Below, piece after piece: positions 3,366 to 39,126 of a stretch of DNA of 50,360 nucleotides. The translations under genes were made by a program, and so were the position numbers. The first letter of the stretch is position 1, and each line of letters begins with the position of its first letter. The notes under the pieces are model-generated. The model made no database searches and was not told the DNA's origin. It saw only the letters and a list, made by a program, of their open reading frames with translations. The stretch covers positions 1 to 50,360 of IMG/VR virus record IMGVR_UViG_3300037743_000183; one strand, written 5' to 3'. This DNA comes from a virus. Its lineage: Duplodnaviria > Caudoviricetes.

Positions 3366-4058
3366 TCATGGCGTCTGCTTGGCGCAGACGTTGCGGTGGT
3401 AGGCGCTGCTGGTGGGGTTGCCGCAGCGTGGGCAGGTGGGTGATGTTCGGACGTTCGGCTCACCGCCCGCCGCGCCGCCAGCGCGCTGGCGGCGGGCGGT
3501 GCTGCGGTGGCCCGCCACCGCCTCCTTCGGGGCGGGGCGGGGCGGGGTGGGCGTTACAGACGTGTCGTGAGACGTGTCGTTGGACGCGTCTATATCGGCA
3601 TCCTTTTTAGGACCATCCCGCGCGTTCCCGGACATACCCGTTGTGGATAAGTCGGCTGGCCCTGTGGATGACGCCCCGATCCGCTTGGCGAGCCAGCGGG
3701 CCTGCCGTTCGGCCTTGGCCCGGCGTTGCTGGACCACCTTCGCCCGGCTGGGCTGGTAGTTCCAGTAGTCGTGGATAACCCACCCGTCGGCGTGTGTGCC
3801 GTCTGCTGGGCATGCTGTCGACGGGCAGTTGTGGCCCGCTTCGTGGAACAATCCCCGCCGCACCAGTTCAAGGACGAACGTTGCCGGCTTGCGCACCTGC
3901 GCACACACCTGGTCGAGGTCGCCAGTGGGAATCCAACCGTCCATGAGGTTGCGATTGCTCCACGGGATGCTCGCCGAGTGTAGGCGGTACGCCGGATCCG
4001 ACAACGCCGCGACCTTGCGGTGGATCGGGTACTGGTCATCGAACCGGACCCAGGGCAT
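3366..4058 (-). CDS. replication initiator-like protein (actinophage RepA-like)
   Basis: MPWVRFDD..HRKV..LSD.AYRL..DGWIP..GWVIHDYWNYQPS motif; position downstream of RecT/RuvC; internal repeats. Confidence 0.7.
   Translation of the reverse strand: MPWVRFDDQYPIHRKVAALSDPAYRLHSASIPWSNRNLMDGWIPTGDLDQVCAQVRKPATFVLELVRRGLFHEAGHNCPSTACPADGTHADGWVIHDYWNYQPSRAKVVQQRRAKAERQARWLAKRIGASSTGPADLSTTGMSGNARDGPKKDADIDASNDTSHDTSVTPTPPRPAPKEAVAGHRSTARRQRAGGAAGGEPNVRTSPTCPRCGNPTSSAYHRNVCAKQTP
3558..3778. other. putative replication origin within rep gene (iteron-like repeats + DnaA boxes)
   Basis: agacgtgtcgt x2 (3558, 3570) plus a variant at 3582; TGTGGATAA 3642..3650 is a perfect TTATCCACA on the - strand; 1-mismatch boxes at 3663..3671 and 3770..3778. 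Confidence 0.6.
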
Positions 4059-11786: not shown

Positions 11787-12283
11787 GCCGCACCTCGCAC
11801 GGCGGCCCGGCCGGTCGCGTAGACCACGGGTCCGCGGCGGGCGGGCATCTGGGTGCCGCCGGTGCGGTGCCGGCCGGTGGCAGGTGTCCGGGGGAAGTGG
11901 GAGCCCACCACCGGCCGGCCGGCCCACCCGGTTAGCGGCCGGGTGGGAGCGTTGGGCCTCGCCGTGGCTGCCGGTGCCGCGGCGAGGGTGTTGCATCCTG
12001 TGGTCGGGCCGCCCTTACCCGCACCCGCGGGCTCGCGCCCGGCCGGCAGTGCATACCCGGACCCCGCAGCTACGCCACGGGGTAGCGGCCCTAATGGGAA
12101 TCTGTGGGCGGCGCCCGCCCCCGCACCCCTACCAGGGGCGGGCGCCACAACCCCGGCTGCCACCGCGCCACCTAACGCGGGAGCCTGGGGGACCACCCGG
12201 GCAGCCAGCGCGGCCGCCGGGTGGCGTCTCGGAAGCAGGGTGCCGACCGCGAGCAGCAGCACGGCGGCGATGGCGGCGGTCAT
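11783..12283 (-). CDS. low-complexity hypothetical protein
   Basis: ATGA overlaps at both ends; N-terminal hydrophobic stretch. Confidence 0.4.
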   Translation of the reverse strand: MTAAIAAVLLLAVGTLLPRRHPAAALAARVVPQAPALGGAVAAGVVAPAPGRGAGAGAAHRFPLGPLPRGVAAGSGYALPAGREPAGAGKGGPTTGCNTLAAAPAATARPNAPTRPLTGWAGRPVVGSHFPRTPATGRHRTGGTQMPARRGPVVYATGRAAVRGAA

Positions 12284-17535: not shown

Positions 17536-17831
17536 CGGGTGCTCCCGGTTGGCTCGGCGGTGGTCTGGGTGTCGAGCCGGTCCAGGTAGGCGAACGCTGG
17601 CTCTGCGAACCACCTCCTCAGACCGGTATGGCTAATCTCGATCCCGGTCCTCTGCTCGATCTCTGTGGCGATGGTTCGCCAAGAGGTCCCGGCGATGCGA
17701 TGGGCGATCACGAACTCGGCAACCGGCACACCGAGTCGCTCACTGGTCAACTGCTGGAGTCGGGTTGGCGTGTCCGTTTTCCTTAGTGGAAACCTCCGGA
17801 CCAGCTCGGTCGGGTCGAACGTGGTGGCCAT
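17532..17831 (-). CDS. HTH DNA-binding protein
   Basis: SWRTIATEIEQRTGIEISHTGLRRW. Confidence 0.7.
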   Translation of the reverse strand: MATTFDPTELVRRFPLRKTDTPTRLQQLTSERLGVPVAEFVIAHRIAGTSWRTIATEIEQRTGIEISHTGLRRWFAEPAFAYLDRLDTQTTAEPTGSTR

Positions 17832-18067
17832 CAGCGGACACCTCCGGCCTGCTCGGCCGCGGGCAGGAACCGGGTCACCGGCACGTCGAGCGCGGCGGCG
17901 ATCTCTTGCAGGTCGGTGACGGTGAGCGCGACCGCCCCGCTGATCCGGCGGTGGGTGTAGACGTGGTCCCAGCCGAGCAGCCGCGCCAGGTGGCGCTGAG
18001 AGACCTGACGTAGCGTCATCTCGCGCCGGATAGCGTCGAGCACGTCGCCCGAAGCGGTGGTAGTCAT
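17831..18067 (-). CDS. Cro-like XRE HTH regulator
   Basis: IRREMTLRQVSQRHLARLLGW..RRISG..DLQEIAAALDV; divergent from the repressor. Confidence 0.85.
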   Translation of the reverse strand: MTTTASGDVLDAIRREMTLRQVSQRHLARLLGWDHVYTHRRISGAVALTVTDLQEIAAALDVPVTRFLPAAEQAGGVR

Positions 18068-18191
18068 GGCTAGATGATGCTACGGGCTACGTAGCAGCGT
18101 CAAGCTACGCCACGCGAAACACCCGAACGGATGACACGGCATCGTCTCAGTGGTCTTGACGGATACACAGACTCCGTGCCACCGTTACGCC
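18068..18191. promoter_or_regulatory. divergent lysis/lysogeny switch promoters, both apparently leaderless
   Basis: Leftward TTGACG-18-CATCAT-6-ATG; rightward TTGACG(18156)-18-CACCGT-6-ATG(18192); GCTACG repeats including the palindrome GCTACGTAGC. Confidence 0.7.
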
Positions 18192-18650
18192 ATGAGTAAC
18201 AGTGAGACGCTGAGCGCTCGGGTCGCGGAGGAGATACGCGCCATGCTGGCGCGGCGCCGGGTCAGCGGTCGCGAACTGGCACGCAGGCTGGCTGTCTCGT
18301 CTCCGTGGGTGTCCAACCGGCTGACTGGACACCAGGAGATCGGACTCAACGACCTGGAGCGCATCGCCGACGCGCTCAGCGTCGAGGTGACCGAGCTGCT
18401 ACCACTGGCTGACCAGCCGGCCGAGCGGGTCCTGACGCGCCGCCGCAGGTTACCGGCAAGCTATCCCATTGCTGCCGGGCAGGCCACCCCCGACCAGCCG
18501 AACGGCCACACGATTCGCCCGACCGGACGGGCCACCGGCTCCCTCAGAAGCATGAGCCGCGTACCCGCCCAAACCGGCGGCGGCATCAGCCGCCCGGCCC
18601 GACTCTCCCACCCGCCAGCCCCGGCACCACACAGCGCCACCACCCGATAA
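18192..18650 (+). CDS. immunity repressor (XRE HTH) with long low-complexity C-terminal tail
   Basis: EIRAMLARRRVSGRELARRL..VSNRLTG..DLERIADAL; divergent from cro, co-oriented with the integrase. Confidence 0.85.
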   Translation: MSNSETLSARVAEEIRAMLARRRVSGRELARRLAVSSPWVSNRLTGHQEIGLNDLERIADALSVEVTELLPLADQPAERVLTRRRRLPASYPIAAGQATPDQPNGHTIRPTGRATGSLRSMSRVPAQTGGGISRPARLSHPPAPAPHSATTR

Positions 18651-18656
18651 CCCGAC

Positions 18657-19457
18657 ATGAGCACCCCCGACGCCGACATCCTCGAGGACTACCTCGAACA
18701 CCTCACCCGCATCGGCCGTTCCCCGAAGACGATCCGCACCTACGGGATCGCGTTGCGCGCCGCGCACCGGGAGCTGCCTGCCGGGGTGCCCACCGCCACC
18801 GCCGCCGAGATCACCGCCTGGCTCGGCCGGTACGCCAGCGCGGCCACCCGCCGCACCTACCACGCCGCGTTGACCGGCTGCATCTCCTGGGCGGTCGCCG
18901 TCGGGCACATCAGCCGGGACGAAGGGGCGCTGGTCCCCCGCCCCCGGGTCCGCCCAGGCCTGCCCAACCCGTGCAGCGACGCCGAGCTCGCGGCGATCCT
19001 GGCCCGGGCGGCCGAGCCGTACCGGCTGTGGTCGCTGCTCGCCGCCTACGCCGGCGCCAGGTGTATCGAGATCGCCCGCCTCCGGCGTGAGCACATCGAC
19101 CCCGAACGGGTGACGCTACACGGCAAGGGCGACAAAACCCGCCGGGTGCCCACCCACCCGCTGGTCTGGGCGGCGGTCGAGGGCCTGCCGCCGGGTCCGG
19201 TGGCGCCGGGGCGGGACCCGTGGCGTGACCAGGTGTCGGCCGAGCTACGCCGCACCTACCTCGCCCTGGGGGTGGACGTGACCGCGCATCAGCTCCGGCA
19301 CTGGTACGGCACCGCGCTGGTGATGTCTGGGGCCGGGCTGGAGGAGGTGCGGGAGCTGATGGGCCACGCGTCGATCTCGACCACGCTGGGGTATGTCCGG
19401 GTCGCCAGCCCCCGGTTGGCGGCGGCGGTCGGCCGGCTGCCGGCGTTGGTCGGGTGA
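18657..19457 (+). CDS. tyrosine integrase/recombinase, short (no arm-binding domain)
   Basis: YAGARCIEI (R), HGKGDKTR (K), AHQLRHWYGT (HxxR), LMGHAS (H), TLGY (Y); 266 aa. Confidence 0.93.
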   Translation: MSTPDADILEDYLEHLTRIGRSPKTIRTYGIALRAAHRELPAGVPTATAAEITAWLGRYASAATRRTYHAALTGCISWAVAVGHISRDEGALVPRPRVRPGLPNPCSDAELAAILARAAEPYRLWSLLAAYAGARCIEIARLRREHIDPERVTLHGKGDKTRRVPTHPLVWAAVEGLPPGPVAPGRDPWRDQVSAELRRTYLALGVDVTAHQLRHWYGTALVMSGAGLEEVRELMGHASISTTLGYVRVASPRLAAAVGRLPALVG

Positions 19458-21701: not shown

Positions 21702-21983
21702 TCATGCCTCAGCCCTCGGCTCGGGCAGTACCGGCGGGGTCCACAGAGTCTCGATCGGTACCGGGCCGCTGTACCGCCGGCACCGACAGGTGTAGTCGTA
21801 GTAGCCGTCCTTGACCCGAGCGTGACAAGCGCCAGACTCAGGATCATGCATGGAGCGGTGGTGGGTACACCCGCAGACCTGCTGGTCGTCCGGTGGTCGA
21901 CGACTGACCCGACCGATCCGGCCAGCCAGGAAACCCACGGCCAGCAGCGCAGCCCCGACGGCTAGGCTCAGCGGCTCAATCAT
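21702..21983 (-). CDS. membrane-anchored Cys/His-rich protein
   Basis: N-terminal TM; CGCTHH..H..C..CRCRRY; TACGCT-6-ATG leaderless start. Confidence 0.7.
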   Translation of the reverse strand: MIEPLSLAVGAALLAVGFLAGRIGRVSRRPPDDQQVCGCTHHRSMHDPESGACHARVKDGYYDYTCRCRRYSGPVPIETLWTPPVLPEPRAEA

Positions 21984-22104
21984 GCCCCCAGCGTACACCC
22001 GGTGGCAGTCTCAGGGTCCTACTTGCAGCCAGAGCGCGTCATCCGAACGGGTGAACTTCACCCAGGGACTTGTGTTTGCCGCGCTGGTGCTGCATACTTA
22101 AGGT

Positions 22105-22590
22105 ACAACAGAAAAAAGAACACAAGATCTCAGGAGAAACCACAGGGCCGCGGAAGCGGAAGCCGGAACCGGGAGGACAGACAAGAAGGCACCTGATGCC
22201 ACGAGGGGAGCCGACCGGACCAGTTGCGACGATCACTGACCGCCCAGGCGGTCGGGCTCTCGACCGGCACCCGCAGCCACGGCTCGGGACCGCCCCAGAG
22301 AGGCTTCCCCGGCGGCTCCCCCCGTGGCATCAGGTACACACAGACAACTTGCACCCACATGGCCGGCTCGCCGTCCCGTGAACCGGTGGTGGCTGCCCCT
22401 CCAGGCTCAGGCGGGTGGGGCGCATGCCGAAGCCACTGGCGAGGAGAGCCCTCCGGCGAGCCGGCCATGTGGGTGCAGGTCCACACACCGGCACCCGAAC
22501 GAACCGCTGACCAGCCCGGTGCGGCCCCGGACCCCGGGGCCGTGCCGAGTCGGCCACACTGGCAGACACCACCACCGAAGGAGAGACACC
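22105..22590 (+). ncRNA. candidate structured ncRNA or long leader: array of long hairpins
   Basis: Promoter TTGTGT(22070)-17-CATACT(22093); stems 22191..22213/22313..22335 and 22347..22373/22454..22480; CAGACA linkers; no credible ORF. Confidence 0.6.
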
Positions 22591-23163
22591 ATGACCTACC
22601 AGCAGCCCGACCCGCAGCCGGCCCACAGCCAGCCGCCGGCGCCGGTCAAGGCGCCCAAGCACAAGCTCACCGCCCCCACCTGGCTGATCGCCATCAGCAT
22701 CACCCTGGTTGCCCTGTGCTGCATCGGCGGCGGGATCCTCGCCGTGGTCGGCATCGCCGGCACCGACACGGACGGCGACCCGCTGAACGACGCCAGCCCG
22801 GTCACCCAGCCCACCGAGCAGGGCACGCCAGCACCGGCCGGCCCCAACCCCGACGGCACCGTCGAGGGCGCCTGCGACCTGCTCCTGTTCGTCGAAGGGG
22901 ACCAGTCCGAGTTCGCGGCGTCGATCGACGTGGCCAACGTGGGCAACGTCGGCATTGTGGTCGAGGTGACCGCAGCCTTCGACCAGCTCGGCCAGGATGA
23001 CTACACGATCACCGATGAAGTGCGGGTGGAGGTGGGCGCGACTGAGACCGTGCACCTGGCCGAGCGGATCGACCACGCGGCGGTGGCCCGGCATCAGGAC
23101 GGCGGCTATGAGTGCCGGGTATCCGGGGAGATCGTGGACACGTTCGGGGACGTCCAGGACTGA
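22591..23163 (+). CDS. single-pass membrane protein with extracellular domain (superinfection-exclusion-like position)
   Basis: GAAGGAG RBS; Pro-rich N-terminus; TM WLIAISITLVALCCIGGGILAVVG; paired Cys in beta-rich ectodomain. Confidence 0.75.
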   Translation: MTYQQPDPQPAHSQPPAPVKAPKHKLTAPTWLIAISITLVALCCIGGGILAVVGIAGTDTDGDPLNDASPVTQPTEQGTPAPAGPNPDGTVEGACDLLLFVEGDQSEFAASIDVANVGNVGIVVEVTAAFDQLGQDDYTITDEVRVEVGATETVHLAERIDHAAVARHQDGGYECRVSGEIVDTFGDVQD

Positions 23164-23181: not shown

Positions 23182-23211
23182 AGCCCTCCCGGGCTGTCAC
23201 CCGGGAGGGCT
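23182..23211. terminator. hairpin between convergent genes (likely bidirectional terminator)
   Basis: agccctcccggg-6-cccgggagggct, 12-bp stem. Confidence 0.8.
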
Positions 23212-26762: not shown

Positions 26763-27563
26763 TCAGACAAAAATCTCGATGATCACGATCCCGGCCGCCC
26801 CGGCGGTGGACCCGCGGGCCGACTCGGATGGGCCGTTGTTGCACCCGCCGGAGCCACCACCGTACAGCCGGCCCGGTTCGCCGATGGTGTTGCTGATGCC
26901 GGCCGACGCGCTGCCGGACATGTGGGAGTGGCCGCCGTAGTTGGCCTGGGTGATGTCCGCGCCGATCCGCCGGCCGGTGCCACCGTCCGACCCGTCGATC
27001 AGCAGATCACCGGTGCCGCCGGTGCCACCCTCACCACCGGCGTTGGTCAGGTTGCTGGACCCGGCGGTGCTTCCGTCGCCGTGCTCCCCACCGTTGGCCA
27101 CCACCTTGCTAACACCGAAGCTGGACACAGCTCCGTCGCTGCCGTTGTTGTTGCCCGCCGCCGCCGCCGCCCCCCCACCGCCGACGGTCACCGTCTCCGA
27201 GCTGGCCAGAGCCGCGGCGAGTAGGAAAGACTCGGCATACTCACCACCACCACCACCACCCGGGATCGCACCCTGCCCAGCCGTGGTGGCGGCCGCACCG
27301 CCACACGAACCGCCGCCACCCACGGCCCTGACCCGCACGGCCTTCAACCCGGGGAAGCTGCCCTTGGCGAACGAACCACTGGCGGTGTAGTAGACGGTGG
27401 TCAGGTAGACGTAGCCGGTGCGCACCGGCTGGAGCTCGGCGTCCAGACCGGACACGGTGCCTTCCACCGCTTCGGCCAGGTTGGCCAGTTGTTCCGGCCC
27501 ATCCGGCGGGTCGTTCCGCCCTGGCCGGGGCCAGCCGTAGATCGGTGTGCTCGCCACCGTCAC
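26763..27563 (-). CDS. minor tail protein with glycine-rich domain
   Basis: TPIYGWP.P..DPPDGP..LA.AVE N-terminus; VRAVGGGG..GAAGIVIIE. Confidence 0.75.
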   Translation of the reverse strand: MTVASTPIYGWPRPGRNDPPDGPEQLANLAEAVEGTVSGLDAELQPVRTGYVYLTTVYYTASGSFAKGSFPGLKAVRVRAVGGGGSCGGAAATTAGQGAIPGGGGGGEYAESFLLAAALASSETVTVGGGGAAAAAGNNNGSDGAVSSFGVSKVVANGGEHGDGSTAGSSNLTNAGGEGGTGGTGDLLIDGSDGGTGRRIGADITQANYGGHSHMSGSASAGISNTIGEPGRLYGGGSGGCNNGPSESARGSTAGAAGIVIIEIFV

Positions 27564-29914
27564 ACCTCCACTCTGACCAACGTCTGCTCACGGGTCGTCC
27601 CTACCATCGGACTACCCACGTCCAGGGGGATGGTCAACGACTCCATGACGTGCCGCTCCCGGTTCCCATCCAGGTAACGCACCTCGATCGGATCATGCGG
27701 CCGCAACGCCGGGTTGACGACGGCGCGGAAGTTGACCTCGTACGGCATGCCGATACTCCGGCGCAGCATGTTCCCGGCCGCGACCGACGCCTGACCGACC
27801 GTGGTCAGCAGCGGCGACGCGTAGAACCGTGGCACCTTGCCGAACGGGCCGCCGAAGAACGTGGGTGACAGCGGGTTCGCGTCGACCGCCACCGCCCGCA
27901 CCGGATCAGACCCGTCACCGGCCTCACCGGTGGCAACCACGGCGTTGTACACACCCACCCGGGTCAGGGTGCGGGACACCTGCAGCTGCACCCCATGGTC
28001 GCCGGCGTTGACCGTCCACACCGGCATACCCGGGTCGGGCGCCTGCTCCACCCGCAGGAACCCTTGCCCGTCCCAGAACATGACCTTCCCGAGGCTGTCG
28101 GCGATCTCCCGCAGAAACTGGTAGCGGGACTCCTCGGCCACCAGCTGCCGGCCCAAGTTGTCCATCGCCATCGAATCGAAGATCACCGTCACGTCCGGGT
28201 AGATCTCCCCCACCAGCTCCTGAAAAACCGACTGGTTGGTCCTGCTGCCGGAGAACACCCGCGGGCCGAGTAGCCGCCCGTCGACGATCCCGGACATCCG
28301 GTCCTGGCAGGACAGGCGGATCGGCCCGTCCGGTGCGTCATCCTGCTCCGGAGTGGCGATGCGGAAGTAGCCCAGTGGGAACCACAGCGGCTCCAGGTCG
28401 GGGCCGAGGTCGACCGCCCGGCGCACGAAAATCTCATTCCCGTACGGGGTGAGCAGGTCGGATGCCCGGCGTGGCCACAGGTCCCCGGTGGTGGTCAGCT
28501 CCAGGGTCCGCTGAATCTCCGCGGTCCCGTCGAGTGTCACATCCCCGCCGAGGATCGTGATCTGGACACCGTCCGGGTTCCCGCCGGTTTGGAAGGTGGT
28601 GCATACCCTGGCTTCGACCAGCACCCGGTGGGAGCCGGACAGGGTCCGCAGTAGCGCCCCGGTGGCCGGTGCCGGTGGTGGGGTTCCGGCGACGGTGAAC
28701 GTGTGGGTGAACACCGCGGAGGTGCCACGCCACGCGGTGAGGGTGACCTGCAGGTGGGTGCCGAGGTCCTGGACGGTGACCGTGCCGTACTGGTTCCGCC
28801 CGTCGAGTGTGCCCGCGGAGTAGGTTCCGCCGGTGCCGAGCCCGGGTGTGGCGTCCAGGCTGGCGGCCTGAAGGACGGGGATGTTGCCGGGGGAGTTGGC
28901 CCCGTCGTCGATCGCGAGCCCGTGGTAGTCGCCGGAGACGATGCACATCCGCCCCAGCCAGCCGGTGCTGTCGAACATGGCCACCAGCTCGGCCTGCTCG
29001 GTGGTGAAGCTGGCCCACGAGTCGGTGGCGGTGCCCAGCCACTGCTGGGGTAGCAGCCACACCAGCAGCTTCGCGTCACAGCTGGCGAGTAGCCCGGCCA
29101 GCCACGTCTTCTGGGCGGTGCCGAGCATCGTCTTGGATGCGTCGTCCGGGTCGGAGTTGTCCGAGCCGTAGTAGCGGACATCGGCGCCGACGAACAGAAC
29201 CCGGCCGATCTGCCAGGACTGCCAGATACCGGCCGGGTCGGGCAGGTCGTAGTGGGGTGTCCGCTCGCGGTAGACCTGGGCGGCGTTGGGTGAGGCGCCG
29301 CGCTGGTTGTTGGCCAGGAAGTCGTGGTCATCCCACAGGTAGCCGAATGCGACCTCGCGGTAAAGCTGGGCCTGCCTGGACTGGGCGAGGTTGTCGTCGA
29401 AGAACGTCCGCCGGTTGGCGAGGGTGTCGGTGAGGGTCACATCCCAGTCGGGGTAGCCGAAGTCGCCCAGGTTCACGAACTTGAGCCAGTTGTTGGTCAG
29501 GGCCTGGGTGCGGATGATGTCGAACACGGGGTGGTTGGATACCAGGTCGGCGTCAAGCTCCCCCCCGGCGTCGCCGGGGAAGTCCGGGTCGAGCCCGGCG
29601 CACGACGCGGCCGCGATCGTGAAGCTGGCCGGCAGCCCCAGCGGCGGGTGGGTGATGAACTGGCCGGTCGGGTCGGTGTCCAGGGTCGCGTTGTCTTCGA
29701 CCTGCCACCAGTATCGGGTGGACGGGTCAAGGCCTGCGATGCTGACCTTGGCCACGCCCTGAGCGTCGACCGCCTGCGAGCTCGTGAACACGGGCGAGGT
29801 CATGGCCGGGTTGGCGGCCACCGCCACCCGCACCGGCCCGCCACCGTCAACCTTCGCCACGAAGGTGGCGCCGGCCGGGGTGACCGCACCAACCACCATG
29901 TTGACGACGCTCAC
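27560..29914 (-). CDS. PhoD-like phosphatase fused to tail hub-like (DUF5047-like) protein
   Basis: ASC, NLGDFGYPD, WDDHDF, DVRYY, TMLG..QK.WL, VSGDYH; then LSGSH..PYGNEIFVRR..PLGYFRI..GPFGKVPRFYASP. Confidence 0.8.
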   Translation of the reverse strand: MSVVNMVVGAVTPAGATFVAKVDGGGPVRVAVAANPAMTSPVFTSSQAVDAQGVAKVSIAGLDPSTRYWWQVEDNATLDTDPTGQFITHPPLGLPASFTIAAASCAGLDPDFPGDAGGELDADLVSNHPVFDIIRTQALTNNWLKFVNLGDFGYPDWDVTLTDTLANRRTFFDDNLAQSRQAQLYREVAFGYLWDDHDFLANNQRGASPNAAQVYRERTPHYDLPDPAGIWQSWQIGRVLFVGADVRYYGSDNSDPDDASKTMLGTAQKTWLAGLLASCDAKLLVWLLPQQWLGTATDSWASFTTEQAELVAMFDSTGWLGRMCIVSGDYHGLAIDDGANSPGNIPVLQAASLDATPGLGTGGTYSAGTLDGRNQYGTVTVQDLGTHLQVTLTAWRGTSAVFTHTFTVAGTPPPAPATGALLRTLSGSHRVLVEARVCTTFQTGGNPDGVQITILGGDVTLDGTAEIQRTLELTTTGDLWPRRASDLLTPYGNEIFVRRAVDLGPDLEPLWFPLGYFRIATPEQDDAPDGPIRLSCQDRMSGIVDGRLLGPRVFSGSRTNQSVFQELVGEIYPDVTVIFDSMAMDNLGRQLVAEESRYQFLREIADSLGKVMFWDGQGFLRVEQAPDPGMPVWTVNAGDHGVQLQVSRTLTRVGVYNAVVATGEAGDGSDPVRAVAVDANPLSPTFFGGPFGKVPRFYASPLLTTVGQASVAAGNMLRRSIGMPYEVNFRAVVNPALRPHDPIEVRYLDGNRERHVMESLTIPLDVGSPMVGTTREQTLVRVEV

Positions 29915-36569: not shown

Positions 36570-37144
36570 GGCGCACCGCCCACGGTGATGACACCCCAGC
36601 CGTAGGCCGGGTGGTCAGCCGAGCGGATCTCCACCACCTGATCCGGCGGCAGCATGCCCACGAGCTTGGGCCACAGCTTCCACACCTCACACCGCAGATC
36701 CCCGGCGCTGTCGATGTCGTGGAACAGAACCAACCCACCCGGGCGGACCAGCCGGCCGTACATCTCCCAGTCAGCCCACACCCCCGCGAACAGGTGATCC
36801 CCGTCGAGCACCAGCACGTCCAACGGCCGGCCGGCGAGCTGACCAGTCAGCCACTTCAAAGTCAGCGGATCGTGCGAGTCGCCGATGTGCACGGTCGCGC
36901 CGTGGGTGTTCAGCGGCTGGCCGGAGCCGCCGCTGGCGTAGGAGTTGTCGGCCAGGGTGATGCCGTACACGTCCGGGCACACCTGCCGCCACGCCCACAG
37001 CGTCCCGCCCCGGTCGCATCCGATCTCCACCAGCACCTTCGGCTGGGCAGCGGCCACCAGCTTCACCGCGGCCGCCAGCTCGTCCCGTTTCTGAGAGGCG
37101 CGGTGCTCATCGCAGGCGATCTGGGCGATCCGCTCGGGGGTCAC
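36566..37144 (-). CDS. class I SAM methyltransferase (Methyltransf_24-like)
   Basis: LVEIGC..GGT, GDSH, LDVLVLDGDH, VRPGGLVLFHD. Confidence 0.88.
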   Translation of the reverse strand: MTPERIAQIACDEHRASQKRDELAAAVKLVAAAQPKVLVEIGCDRGGTLWAWRQVCPDVYGITLADNSYASGGSGQPLNTHGATVHIGDSHDPLTLKWLTGQLAGRPLDVLVLDGDHLFAGVWADWEMYGRLVRPGGLVLFHDIDSAGDLRCEVWKLWPKLVGMLPPDQVVEIRSADHPAYGWGVITVGGAP

Positions 37145-39126
37145 GGTGTCACCGGCCGGCAGATCAGGTAGTCGGCCTTCGCCGGCTCAGCCCGGGGACC
37201 CTCCGGGCTCCAGTGGGTCTCGTAGGTGAACGCCACCTCCCAGTCGTAACCCAGCTCGGTCAGCAGCGCCTCCAGGTCGGCGCGCTCGTAGTAGCCGCAG
37301 TAGTCGTGACACTCCACGAACAGCACCGGCCGGTGCCGGGCCAGCAGCCCAGCCATCCCCCGCAACGCGTGCAGATCCGCGCCCTCCACGTCCAGCTTCA
37401 CCAGATCCAACCGGTCCAGGTCGACCAGCTGAGGGTCGGCGTCGAGGCGCCGGGCCAGCACCGCCCCGCGGTAGCCCGGGCACTGAGCCAGGAAACAGTC
37501 GTGACCGTCATCCGCTAATACTTCAGTGTCAATGTGAGACAGCGGGATCGCCCTGGTCGACCCGCCGGACTCCTTCCCATGAGGATCGTCCAGGCTGAGC
37601 CAGGTGTACTTGTCCCACGCGGCGAACTCCAGCACGGTCACGTTGCCGATGTCGTTGAGTGCCAGGTTCCGGCGCAGCCCCGACACGGCGGCCGGGTTCG
37701 GCTCCACCGCGAACACCTGGGACGCCTTGCCGGCCAGCCGCACCGAGTAGTGACCGACGTGAGCGCCAACGTCCAGCAGCACCCCACCATCCGGCAGCAG
37801 CGGCTCCACAATCCCCAGAAGCTCGGACTCGTGCTCGCCCAGGCCCAGGTAGTCCTCGGAACCCTTACCCCGGTCCAACCACAGCAGCCCGTCGGCCTCC
37901 CGCACCCGCACCCGGGGACGCCCCGACGCCTTGGCCGCGTCCTCACCACGGCGGGTCAGCGCATCGGCCAACTGCTTCAACGCCGGCTCCCAATGCTCGG
38001 CCAGCACCCGGTCGGCGTCGTACTCCTGGGCGAACCCCCACGCCTGCGCGCGCATCTCCTGGTCGCGGGCATGCTCGTACGCCTCCTCGTACGCGTCGAC
38101 TATCGAGGCGATGAACGGCCGCCGCGCCCAAGCGCTCTGCGAGTCGTGCCACATCGGCTCCCCGGGCACCTTCCACCCGGCGCCCACCAGCTCCGGCATG
38201 CTGGTCGTATCCGACACCACCACCGGCGTGCCTACCGCCTGAGCCTCGACAATCGGCACCCCGAAGCCCTCGCCCCAGGAGCAGTTGGTCAGCACATCCG
38301 CGGCCCGGTAGATGTCGGCGATCGTCGACGCGGGCACACCCACCTTGTACGCGTACTGGTCGGTGAACCAGTACGACCCCTCGGGAAAGTCGCTGAGCAG
38401 GTGGCGGATGTCCACCCCGTACGGTGAGGTCACGTCGGTGTGGAGCGCCAGCACCGCATCCGGATGCTTCCGGCGCAGCTCGCCGAAGGCGAGGATCTGC
38501 TCGTAGAACGCCTTCCGCGCCCCGTCCTTGCCCACGTTCGCGGCGACCATAGCCACCACGAACGCATCTTCGGGCAGCCCCACCCGTTGCCGGGCCTCCG
38601 CCTTGTCCCCCGGGCAGAAGATGCTGGTGTCGATGCCGTGGGGCACGTACAGCGGCTTCAACCCGGCCTCAATGAGCGCCCGTTCCCCGAACCGGGACAT
38701 GGCGATCGGGATCGCCCCCATGGTCTGAAACCAGTCGACCACCGCCGGGGGCACGTGCTCGTGGTCGACCGGCACCCACGCGGCCACGTTCATCTCGGCC
38801 AGCAGTGGCGCGTTGAAAGTCCACACGTCCCCGAGGGTGATGATCAGCCCCTTGTCGGCCACCTCCCGGAAGCTCTTGCCGGGTCCGCCTCCGAAGTGGT
38901 CCACCGCGTGGGGCACGATCACATCCCCGCCGTAGGACTTGGCGTAGGCGGGGTAGCAGGTGATGCCCCGCCAGTTCAACTTGGTGCCCATCAGCCCGTA
39001 GTAGGCGGAGATGGCCAGGTCATGCCCCAACGCTTTGATCCGCGGGGCGAAGGTGGCCGTCTGCTGCCCGTACCCTGAGCCAACGAATGGGGCCACGCTG
39101 TGCCATAAGATCTTGATCAGACTCAC
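37141..39126 (-). CDS. GT4 (GT-B) glycosyltransferase fused to FkbM-family methyltransferase
   Basis: SGYGQQ, VPHGIDT..F.P, EGFGVPIVEAQAVGTPVV; then LDVGAHVG, EPNP, VKLDVEGA, FVECH. Confidence 0.9.
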   Translation of the reverse strand: MSLIKILWHSVAPFVGSGYGQQTATFAPRIKALGHDLAISAYYGLMGTKLNWRGITCYPAYAKSYGGDVIVPHAVDHFGGGPGKSFREVADKGLIITLGDVWTFNAPLLAEMNVAAWVPVDHEHVPPAVVDWFQTMGAIPIAMSRFGERALIEAGLKPLYVPHGIDTSIFCPGDKAEARQRVGLPEDAFVVAMVAANVGKDGARKAFYEQILAFGELRRKHPDAVLALHTDVTSPYGVDIRHLLSDFPEGSYWFTDQYAYKVGVPASTIADIYRAADVLTNCSWGEGFGVPIVEAQAVGTPVVVSDTTSMPELVGAGWKVPGEPMWHDSQSAWARRPFIASIVDAYEEAYEHARDQEMRAQAWGFAQEYDADRVLAEHWEPALKQLADALTRRGEDAAKASGRPRVRVREADGLLWLDRGKGSEDYLGLGEHESELLGIVEPLLPDGGVLLDVGAHVGHYSVRLAGKASQVFAVEPNPAAVSGLRRNLALNDIGNVTVLEFAAWDKYTWLSLDDPHGKESGGSTRAIPLSHIDTEVLADDGHDCFLAQCPGYRGAVLARRLDADPQLVDLDRLDLVKLDVEGADLHALRGMAGLLARHRPVLFVECHDYCGYYERADLEALLTELGYDWEVAFTYETHWSPEGPRAEPAKADYLICRPVTP

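Follow-up and report, generated by a model that had tools for sequence, protein, structure and literature searches.

Folded RNAs placed just downstream of regulated promoters are familiar from temperate phages, as in the put RNAs of HK022, the leader-encoded c4 RNA of P1 and the CI RNA of P4. Phage mRNAs can also contain hairpins that are processed by RNase III, for instance in the early region of T7 and in the N leader of lambda, and processing stalks flank ribosomal RNAs (rRNAs); the enzyme is nearly universal in bacteria and cleaves double-stranded RNA of about two helical turns. Correia-type miniature inverted-repeat transposable elements (MITEs) and REP/BIME sequences form units of about 100–160 bp with inverted repeats of about 25 bp, which are RNase III substrates when transcribed. 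This article examines, in the light of these systems, a tract of long hairpins at positions 22105–22590 of the uncultured virus record IMGVR_UViG_3300037743_000183. The stretch analysed, referred to as the window, is the whole 50,360-bp record; it has terminal repeats and a G+C content of about 70%. The tract is a real, constrained and uncatalogued leader element, whose anatomy is well supported and whose role is proposed here from sequence comparison.

Long double-stranded stems in a predicted phage transcript, and a stalk formed from the flanks of a folded interior, are features that the tract shares with the hairpins of T7 and lambda N and with rRNA stalks. It differs from the phage examples in that the hairpins lie in a leader rather than between genes, are nearly perfect, enclose branched interiors of 52–130 nt and come in interchangeable types. 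There is no relation to RNase III sites of the T7 type or to rRNA stalks by sequence or in Rfam, and the likeness is an analogy from general background. With the put, c4 and CI RNAs, the shared points are the position behind a promoter and a presumed action on the element's own operon, and put also consists of two adjacent hairpins; sizes and shapes differ, and the window's leader has neither a conserved target complementarity nor a match to a known model. Unlike Correia and REP units, those of the window are single-copy, occupy one syntenic position without target duplication, and were found nowhere outside this group of phages.

In layout, the tract comes closest among described elements to the abundant ~500-nt non-coding transcript of Cluster A mycobacteriophages (L5, D29 and StarStuff), which lies between the early promoter Pleft and gene 89 (PMC5712189). 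The likeness is that of a leader of ~500 nt, free of open reading frames (ORFs), which separates a promoter under repressor control from the first small gene in a temperate phage with a high-GC host. The two leaders show no sequence similarity (blastn against GenBank phages). The inverted repeats of the L5 leader do not exceed 18 nt at 72%, and its fold has z = −5.2. The L5 transcript has been shown to be abundant and stable. No description of this leader element was found in the literature.

Long-stalk hairpins in a non-coding tract

The tract lies between a conserved promoter-like site and the gene that starts at 22591. Its dominant features are two long hairpins on the plus strand, which a first-pass annotation of the DNA had proposed and which are real and lie where it placed them. 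Unit 1 (22191–22335) has a stalk formed by 22191–22218 and 22308–22335 around a branched interior of 89 nt; its 28-nt arms are 89% complementary, the inner 23 bp containing one A·C mismatch. Unit 2 (22347–22480) has a stalk formed by 22347–22373 and 22454–22480, with 27-nt arms that are 96% complementary and include one U·G pair. Its interior helix (about 22383–22399/22417–22439) leads to an apical loop (about 22400–22416) that contains a conserved GGCTCA. The units are separated by the A/C-rich linker ACACACAGACA (22336–22346, plus strand), and every relative with two hairpins has, between them, a linker of 5–13 nt with little G or T.

When stems of at least 20 bp with at most two mismatches and loops of 30–220 nt are demanded, units 1 and 2 are the sole inverted repeats in the window. 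Forty block-wise dinucleotide shuffles, counted at stems of at least 16 bp, gave 0–4 stems each. The same finder returned seven repeats from 1,274,111 bases of 154 other viral and metagenome loci, mostly high in GC: four in loci of the same leader family, two of one other type (L072 and L119; relatives and comparison loci are cited by such handles) and one unrelated.

Several smaller similarities that had been reported for the tract were also found, namely CAGACA-containing linkers near 22178, 22341 and 22563, and similar GAGAG..CC..GGCG elements ahead of both 3′ arms. The stem pattern ACyTG-NNN-CCAC-NN-GG, thought to be common to the units, holds inside the window alone; what recurs across the family is no more than CCTR...YAGG, at the base of the stalks. 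The count of the latter is biased, since the family-wide hairpin finder demanded a CCTR start, and it was seen for nine stalks by unbiased finders.

The tract does not encode protein. Between 22000 and 22540 there is no third-position GC periodicity, which is strong in the gene from 22591, and relatives differ inside the units by indels of 1, 2 and 4 nt, which rules out coding; the coding potential of the tract was rejected on both grounds. That it is the longest non-coding tract in the genome is not established by a crude map of third-position GC content (GC3), which leaves other gaps of 545 and 478 nt in addition to low-GC3 stretches that hold ORFs.

A family of leaders with exchangeable parts

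The same layout occurs in 17 distinct uncultured IMG/VR records (the window and 16 others), with 28 hairpins in total; the relatives were found via flanking proteins, a small cassette protein and leader patterns. In this layout, a promoter-like site is followed by an A-rich stretch of about 35 nt, a small conserved element (the pre-leader, of type a or b), the long-stalk hairpins, a linker and genes. One or two long hairpins are present per leader, with stalks of 20–29 bp enclosing 52–130 nt; all 28 have stalks of 20–29 positions, of which 0–4 are non-Watson–Crick. The A/C-rich linker behind the hairpins leads to a strong ribosome-binding site and then to small genes, one to five in number, whose identity varies from record to record. 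Six records were searched whole (the window and five relatives), and each contains the leader once.

Several hairpin types can be distinguished. The first position is taken by U1 (window, L009, L011 and L188) or U1′ (six records). The second or sole position is held by U2 (the same four records as U1), X (seven records), Y/Y′ (L190, L182 and L186), Z (L182 and L186) or V (L183, L185 and L191). Exchange among the records extends to promoter modules, to the sequences of the stalks, to hairpin interiors and to the genes downstream. The window itself combines the promoter and pre-leader of L010 and L022 with the U1+U2 block of L009 and L011. In L012 (reverse strand, about 3640–3700), a deletion of ~100 nt has cost the first hairpin its 5′ half and pre-leader b the greater part of its length, but the second hairpin and the operon remain. 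Promoters and cassettes change freely, yet each of the 17 records retains at least one long hairpin.

Within the interior of hairpin X, the 7-nt loop CCGTCAG of five records is replaced in L012 and L184 by its reverse complement, CTGACGG. This inversion looks like a template-switch event within a small hairpin.

Outside the family, a loose stalk pattern found at least 120 stretches in IMG/VR viral contigs; among the matches listed, a partner arm was present only in known family members and in L072 and L119. A pattern of 21 specified bases for the 3′ half matched 34 stretches of a metagenome collection, none with a partner arm (best 14/20). The hairpins of L072 (10151–10238) and L119 (8943–9030), two unrelated uncultured virus records, have a 20-bp stem with a unit-2-like stalk arm and are embedded in a run of roughly 25-nt repeats, a different context.

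Covariation and constraint on the fold

Stalks and interior helices keep their pairing through two-sided changes, as the first-pass annotation had claimed for the two units. For the 21-bp outer stalk of U2 and X, 92.6% of cells are paired and 6 of the 21 pairs are changed on both sides; none of 500 shuffles reaches the covariation score, and slid controls are 24–38% paired. Over the whole U2/Y/Y′ hairpin (seven records) the paired fraction is 97.1%, with two-sided changes at 14 of 44 pairs, five of them in the interior helices that extend the stalk towards the GGCTCA apical loop; slid controls give 38–41% and 0–2 two-sided pairs. The V and Z interiors add seven pairs with two-sided changes.

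Individual positions illustrate the same behaviour. A patch of the first hairpin sets U1 apart from U1′; it reads GCCACG/CGTGGC in the window and L009 and GCTTCG/CGAAGC in L015, L019 and L020, fully paired in each case, and mismatched hybrids of it occur in L010, L011, L022 and L188. L019 and L015 differ by a paired A/T indel, and one U2 stalk pair is T-A in the window, T·G in L009 and L011, and C-G in L188. On this comparison, the pairing pattern is too consistent for drift. The covariation of short interior helices argues for a fold of single-stranded nucleic acid, not for a site in duplex DNA.

The units had also been described as paralogues. Their covariation stood; paralogy is weak, the covariance model of unit 2 scoring unit 1 at 26.7 bits with a rough E of 0.039. 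A model built on U2/Y (R1) and run over 940,694 bases recovered its own seven training sequences, scored U1 and U1′ weakly (E = 0.03–0.07) and missed X, V and Z; the best background match had E = 0.15.

Searches against known families

No known RNA family accounts for the tract, in line with the first reading of it as neither transfer RNA (tRNA) nor CRISPR. Nothing in the window reached the gathering score of an Rfam 15 family. With the limit relaxed to E = 10, the sole hit within 21900–22700 was a chance microRNA of 15.3 bits; five relatives' loci, searched to E = 1, had no hit inside their leaders. ARAGORN found no tRNA or transfer-messenger RNA gene in the window. By blastn there was no match among 50,697 phage records of GenBank or 72,556 plasmid records.

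Judged by the placing of its hairpins and by its genes, the locus resembles neither retrons nor integrons. Nowhere in the genome is there an RVT_1 match that would indicate a reverse transcriptase. In place of one attC-like hairpin after each cassette, the long hairpins stand in tandem ahead of the first gene; the only integrase is XerC/D-like and lies beside a repressor gene, 2.7 kb from the leader. The flanks of the units (GAAGGC/ACACAC and CAGACA/CCACAC) show no target-site duplication.

Promoter region and pre-leader

The promoter-like site P1 (22070–22098, plus strand) consists of TTGTGT (22070–22075), a 17-nt spacer and CATACT (22093–22098), as had been noted before. Both hexamers are kept in L010, L012, L015, L019 and L020, in L012 with a different spacer. 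Of five leaders put through a strict promoter scan, two reach 10/12, L009 with TTGACA-17-TACAGT and L190 with TTGACG-17-TATAGT. The leader is found behind six or more different promoter/operator modules, without any change of orientation. A search of genome contigs with the promoter pattern gave two chance matches, in a Bacteroidales and a Colwellia genome.

An operator-like 16-nt motif, GTCATCCGAACGGGTG (22038–22053, plus strand), lies 16 nt 5′ of the −35 hexamer. The 16-nt motif GTCATCCGWWCGGGTG has exactly two zero-mismatch copies in the window, at 22038–22053 and, on the minus strand, at 18120–18135, where it sits between divergent genes for Cro/C1-type helix-turn-helix (HTH) proteins. It is probably an operator common to the immunity switch and the divergent promoter region at the leader, and its presence at both sites suggests that the immunity regulators may act at the leader promoter region.

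The leftward gene that diverges from this region apparently starts at ATG 21983–21981, 6 nt past a minus-strand TACGCT −10-like hexamer (21981–21995); with so short a distance, its mRNA may be leaderless. Beside this gene, the sequence up to 22060 is conserved in five relatives. The alternative promoter modules (L009, 2400–2650; L190, 8900–8980; and upstream of the leaders of L182, L184 and L191) each bear operator-like repeats of their own, which overlap the promoters, such as the TCTAGG repeats of L190 and the CACCGCGCGGTG palindromes of L191. Each such module adjoins a small divergent gene, probably for the cognate repressor.

Two forms of pre-leader follow the promoters. Form a (22105–22190, plus strand) has an A-rich start and then small hairpins at 22148–22159 (CCGC-GGAA-GCGG) and 22163–22172; it is common to the window, L010 and L022 only. 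The stem at 22148–22159 shows a two-sided change, CCGC/GCGG in the window against CCCC/GGGG in L022. Form b, present in 13 other records, consists of a closing stem, a GGCC/GGCC hairpin and a GCGG-GTAGAA-CCGC hairpin.

Cassette boundary and downstream operon

Behind unit 2, positions 22481–22507 (plus strand) form a remnant linker where relatives bear their first cassette gene. In L011 a 76-aa gene stands between flanks that match those of this segment; the window thus appears to have lost the cassette held by L011, and 22481–22507 would be the deletion junction. The weaker hairpin beyond it, which had been taken for a third paralogous unit, is instead a cassette-boundary hairpin (22508–22556, plus strand). 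It starts at a TGA (22508), has a core stem of 22523–22530 and 22534–22541 (GGCCCCGG/CCGGGGCC), and recurs after cassette stop codons in L010 (twice) and L011.

The complete boundary element comprises a stop codon, a GC-rich hairpin, an A/C-rich linker and GAAGGAG, and separates interchangeable orphan genes (window, 22508–22590; L010, 2941–3018 and 3329–3410; L011, 1861–1940). Its likely role is that of a joint for recombination, of a stabiliser of mRNA 3′ ends, or of both. A boundary of a second type is shared by L009, L010, L012 and L015.

The segment 22557–22590 (plus strand) holds an A/C-rich linker and the ribosome-binding site GAAGGAGAG (22577–22585), which lies in an unstructured stretch and is not sequestered; the CCACCGAAGGAG context likewise precedes most cassette genes in relatives. 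The sole operon gene of the window (22591–23163, plus strand; GC3 0.93) encodes a predicted membrane protein of 190 aa with no Pfam or PHROG match. Its relatives (100%, 91% and 52% identity) stand last in longer cassette operons, and none of the ten cassette proteins tested has a family in Pfam or PHROGs. The operon is closed by a convergent terminator-like hairpin (23182–23211) with a 12-bp GC stem, a 6-nt loop and a T-rich tail, which differs in kind from units 1 and 2.

Genome and host

The window has the gene set of a temperate siphovirus, and the habitats that harbour this group of phages are sediment and soil. The minus strand carries genes for portal, protease, capsid, tape measure and tail proteins between about 43978 and 24761, and RecT, RecE, ParB-like and methylase genes below 17613. 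The immunity module (17831–19457) comprises the divergent Cro/C1-type HTH genes at 17831–18067 (minus strand) and 18192–18650 (plus strand), followed by the short XerC/D-like integrase gene (18657–19457, 266 aa; 2.7 kb from the leader); three GCTACG repeats lie between the two HTH genes. An interrupted integrase was considered, as 18150–18650 is in frame with the integrase gene, and rejected, 18192–18650 being a separate Cro/C1-type HTH gene.

Within the structural block, 37141–39126 encodes a 661-aa glycosyltransferase that is most similar to glycosyltransferases from a Microcystis phage (42% identity) and from a Pontimonas phage (35%). The tail protein encoded by 27560–29914 (784 aa) matches a phosphodiesterase/hydrolase PHROG over its N-terminal 400 residues.

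The portal protein is less than 30% identical to that of any GenBank phage, and no cultured phage is close. Genome contigs searched contained no relative of the capsid protein and none of the cassette alignment. The actinobacterial host that the first-pass annotation had assumed is not borne out by these comparisons: the label 'actinophage' comes down to the G+C content and a weak atlas hint of Actinomycetota.

Proposed function and rival explanations

The reading preferred here, to which we give about an even chance, is that 22105–22590 is the 5′ leader of a rightward accessory-gene operon and acts as a folded RNA in cis. The leader would be transcribed on the plus strand, and its near-perfect stalks of at least 23 bp would be cut by RNase III of the host, a step that is tentative and somewhat doubtful. 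The stems of the window (23 bp with one mismatch, and 27 bp with one U·G) reach the about two helical turns of double-stranded RNA that form an RNase III site; the phage does not encode the enzyme (Pfam search; the control matched in 8 of 14 reference genomes). Cutting would detach the promoter-proximal RNA and give the operon mRNA a defined 5′ end before an unstructured, A/C-rich ribosome landing site. Cassette expression would thereby become independent of the upstream promoter module, the leader serving to process the mRNA and to insulate it, and the folded RNA pieces cut off would persist as stable by-products. The long hairpins are never followed by T-runs on the plus strand and the operon's terminator (23182–23211) is of another type, so they are unlikely to terminate rightward transcription.

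That the element is a structured leader RNA of the plus strand is, by itself, quite probable. As plus-strand RNA the tract folds at −262.9 kcal/mol with z = −9.0. The closing stem of pre-leader b (also labelled P1) has a C-G pair in six records and U·G in seven, plus one G-C to A-U change. In the interior helix of U2/Y, 21 G·U and two mismatched cells on the plus strand compare with one G·U and 22 mismatches on the minus strand, a count that is biased because the structure was predicted on the plus strand; the U2/Y consensus energy is −75.8 on the plus and −67.2 on the minus strand. The A/C-rich composition of the linkers on the plus strand is a further hint. In 17 of 17 records the promoter-like site before the element and the operon after it both point rightward; since the loci are syntenic, this constant orientation counts as one observation rather than 17.

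A number of points weigh against the preferred reading. The minus strand has the lower minimum free energy (−274.6, with z = −5.05, the plus strand having the better z), and consensus energies favour it for U1′, X and V+Z. In the stalks, A·C-type cells outnumber G·U by 28 to 16 (28 hairpins; cells not independent), and such cells would be wobbles only on the minus strand. The six sequencing runs listed with the sequence are of DNA, none being on record as RNA. P1 scores only 8/12 and for that reason is absent from the strict promoter scan, in which three of the five leaders had no promoter at all. As the core of pre-leader b served as a search pattern, its invariance is partly built in, and the deletion in L012 indicates that most of the pre-leader, and half of the first hairpin on its 5′ side, are dispensable there. 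Most of the covariation comes from a few deep splits between hairpin types in closely related records; with few events and a shallow tree, the two-sided counts overstate independence. Leader identity (98.3% for the window and L009, 96.9% for L019 and L020) is no higher than third-codon-position identity of neighbouring genes (98.4% and 94.6%, respectively) to a degree that would resolve purifying selection. Cleavage by RNase III and insulation, finally, are inferred steps.

Several other explanations were weighed, of which two would have the interiors act in trans. If the stalks were excision signals, as the first-pass annotation had it, the 52–130-nt interiors could be released as small RNAs serving as decoys, antisense RNAs or immunity factors, by analogy with c4 and CI. 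Such a function, which we regard as fairly unlikely, would fit the homologous, covarying interiors that U2 and Y/Y′, and likewise V and Z, keep behind very different stalks, the conserved GGCTCA loop of U2/Y/Y′, the swapping of interiors as modules between genomes, and the operator-like palindromes that, by eye, overlap the upstream promoters as in tightly controlled immunity-type operons. No target was found for them, and the complementarities between loops and targets that the first-pass annotation had suggested looking for are not conserved in relatives: the unit-2 interior (22385–22397) is complementary to the linker at 22561–22573 in 12 of 13 positions, which is within chance for the composition and is not kept in Y- or X-bearing relatives, and an 8-nt match of the apical loop to the start of the divergent gene is lost where that gene differs. 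A 19-nt near-identity of the unit-1 interior to 11961–11979 was rejected as an antisense target, being same-sense with the gene there. An extended form, which is unlikely, would make the element a modular platform in which the conserved stalk base CCUR...YAGG marks excision, at least five swappable interior types act in trans and the cut sets the 5′ end of the cassette mRNA; the released interiors might then form, for example, an RNA-based layer of immunity, exclusion or anti-defence whose specificity changes with payload swaps. Antitermination in cis, in the manner of put and nut, is a long shot by comparison. Here the small conserved hairpins, the paired long ones or both would act on RNA polymerase and enable it to pass the GC-rich hairpins which, in relatives, follow every cassette; the latter have no T-runs on the plus strand and may not be terminators. 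The position directly behind the promoter, the usual presence of two adjacent hairpins and the small purine-loop hairpins that come first (22148–22159 with its GGAA loop; GCGG-GTAGAA-CCGC in pre-leader b) would all suit such a leader, against which stand the want of an Rfam match, the operon that L012 keeps without its pre-leader, and stalks that far exceed the length of any put or nut element known to us.

The remaining explanations place the function in DNA, in leftward transcription or in mobility. An element at the DNA level, with hairpins forming in single-stranded DNA at a replication or recombination site, or with sites for a dimeric protein, and with perfection maintained by template-switch correction, would account for the unusual perfection of the stalks, for mismatches without a plus-strand wobble preference (16 G·U against 28 A·C), for patches such as TT to CA and the loop inversion in L012 and L184, which resemble template-switch events, and for the clustering of mosaic joints at the leader. 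We hold it to be a long shot too, for the covarying short interior helices are unneeded in duplex DNA, the A/C-rich linkers and the U·G/C-G alternation of pre-leader b fit RNA, all 17 records (not independent, the loci being syntenic) show the element in one orientation to promoter and operon, no replication gene is near, and the integrase lies 2.7 kb off beside its own regulatory region. It has also to be considered whether the hairpins are polar terminators that stop antisense read-through from the convergent late operon and let rightward transcription pass. On the minus strand a T/G-rich run does follow each long hairpin, the linkers reading GTTGTCTGTGTGT and CCTTCTTGTCTG, and terminator-like sites inside the scanned leaders were listed on that strand only. 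The listed sites are, however, small local hairpins of 5–7 bp and not the long stalks, stems closing 80–130-nt interiors are poor intrinsic terminators, a strong convergent terminator is already present at 23182–23211, and conserved interiors and pre-leader are left unexplained, which makes this role very unlikely. The suggestion that MITE- or REP-like units have landed in an intergenic region derives from the size of the units (134–145 bp), their inverted repeats of about 25 bp and a common outer motif. It is largely refuted and hardly credible: the window and the five relatives searched whole have a single locus each, the units of the window show no flanking duplication, the units always stand at the same place in the same operon, blastn found none in phage or plasmid collections, and none of the 34 metagenome pattern matches has a partner arm.

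Significance

Structured leaders before early or accessory operons are a known general theme of phage biology, and most of them are uncatalogued. The present family is unusually easy to dissect, as each of its parts (promoter, small hairpins, long hairpins, linker and cassettes) is swapped on its own between close relatives, and nature has thereby supplied many of the constructs needed. If the stalks process or insulate the operon mRNA, they would explain how freely shuffled accessory genes of phages are expressed predictably, and they may provide insulator parts for high-GC hosts. If, instead, the interiors are released as small RNAs, they would constitute a new class of phage regulatory RNA.

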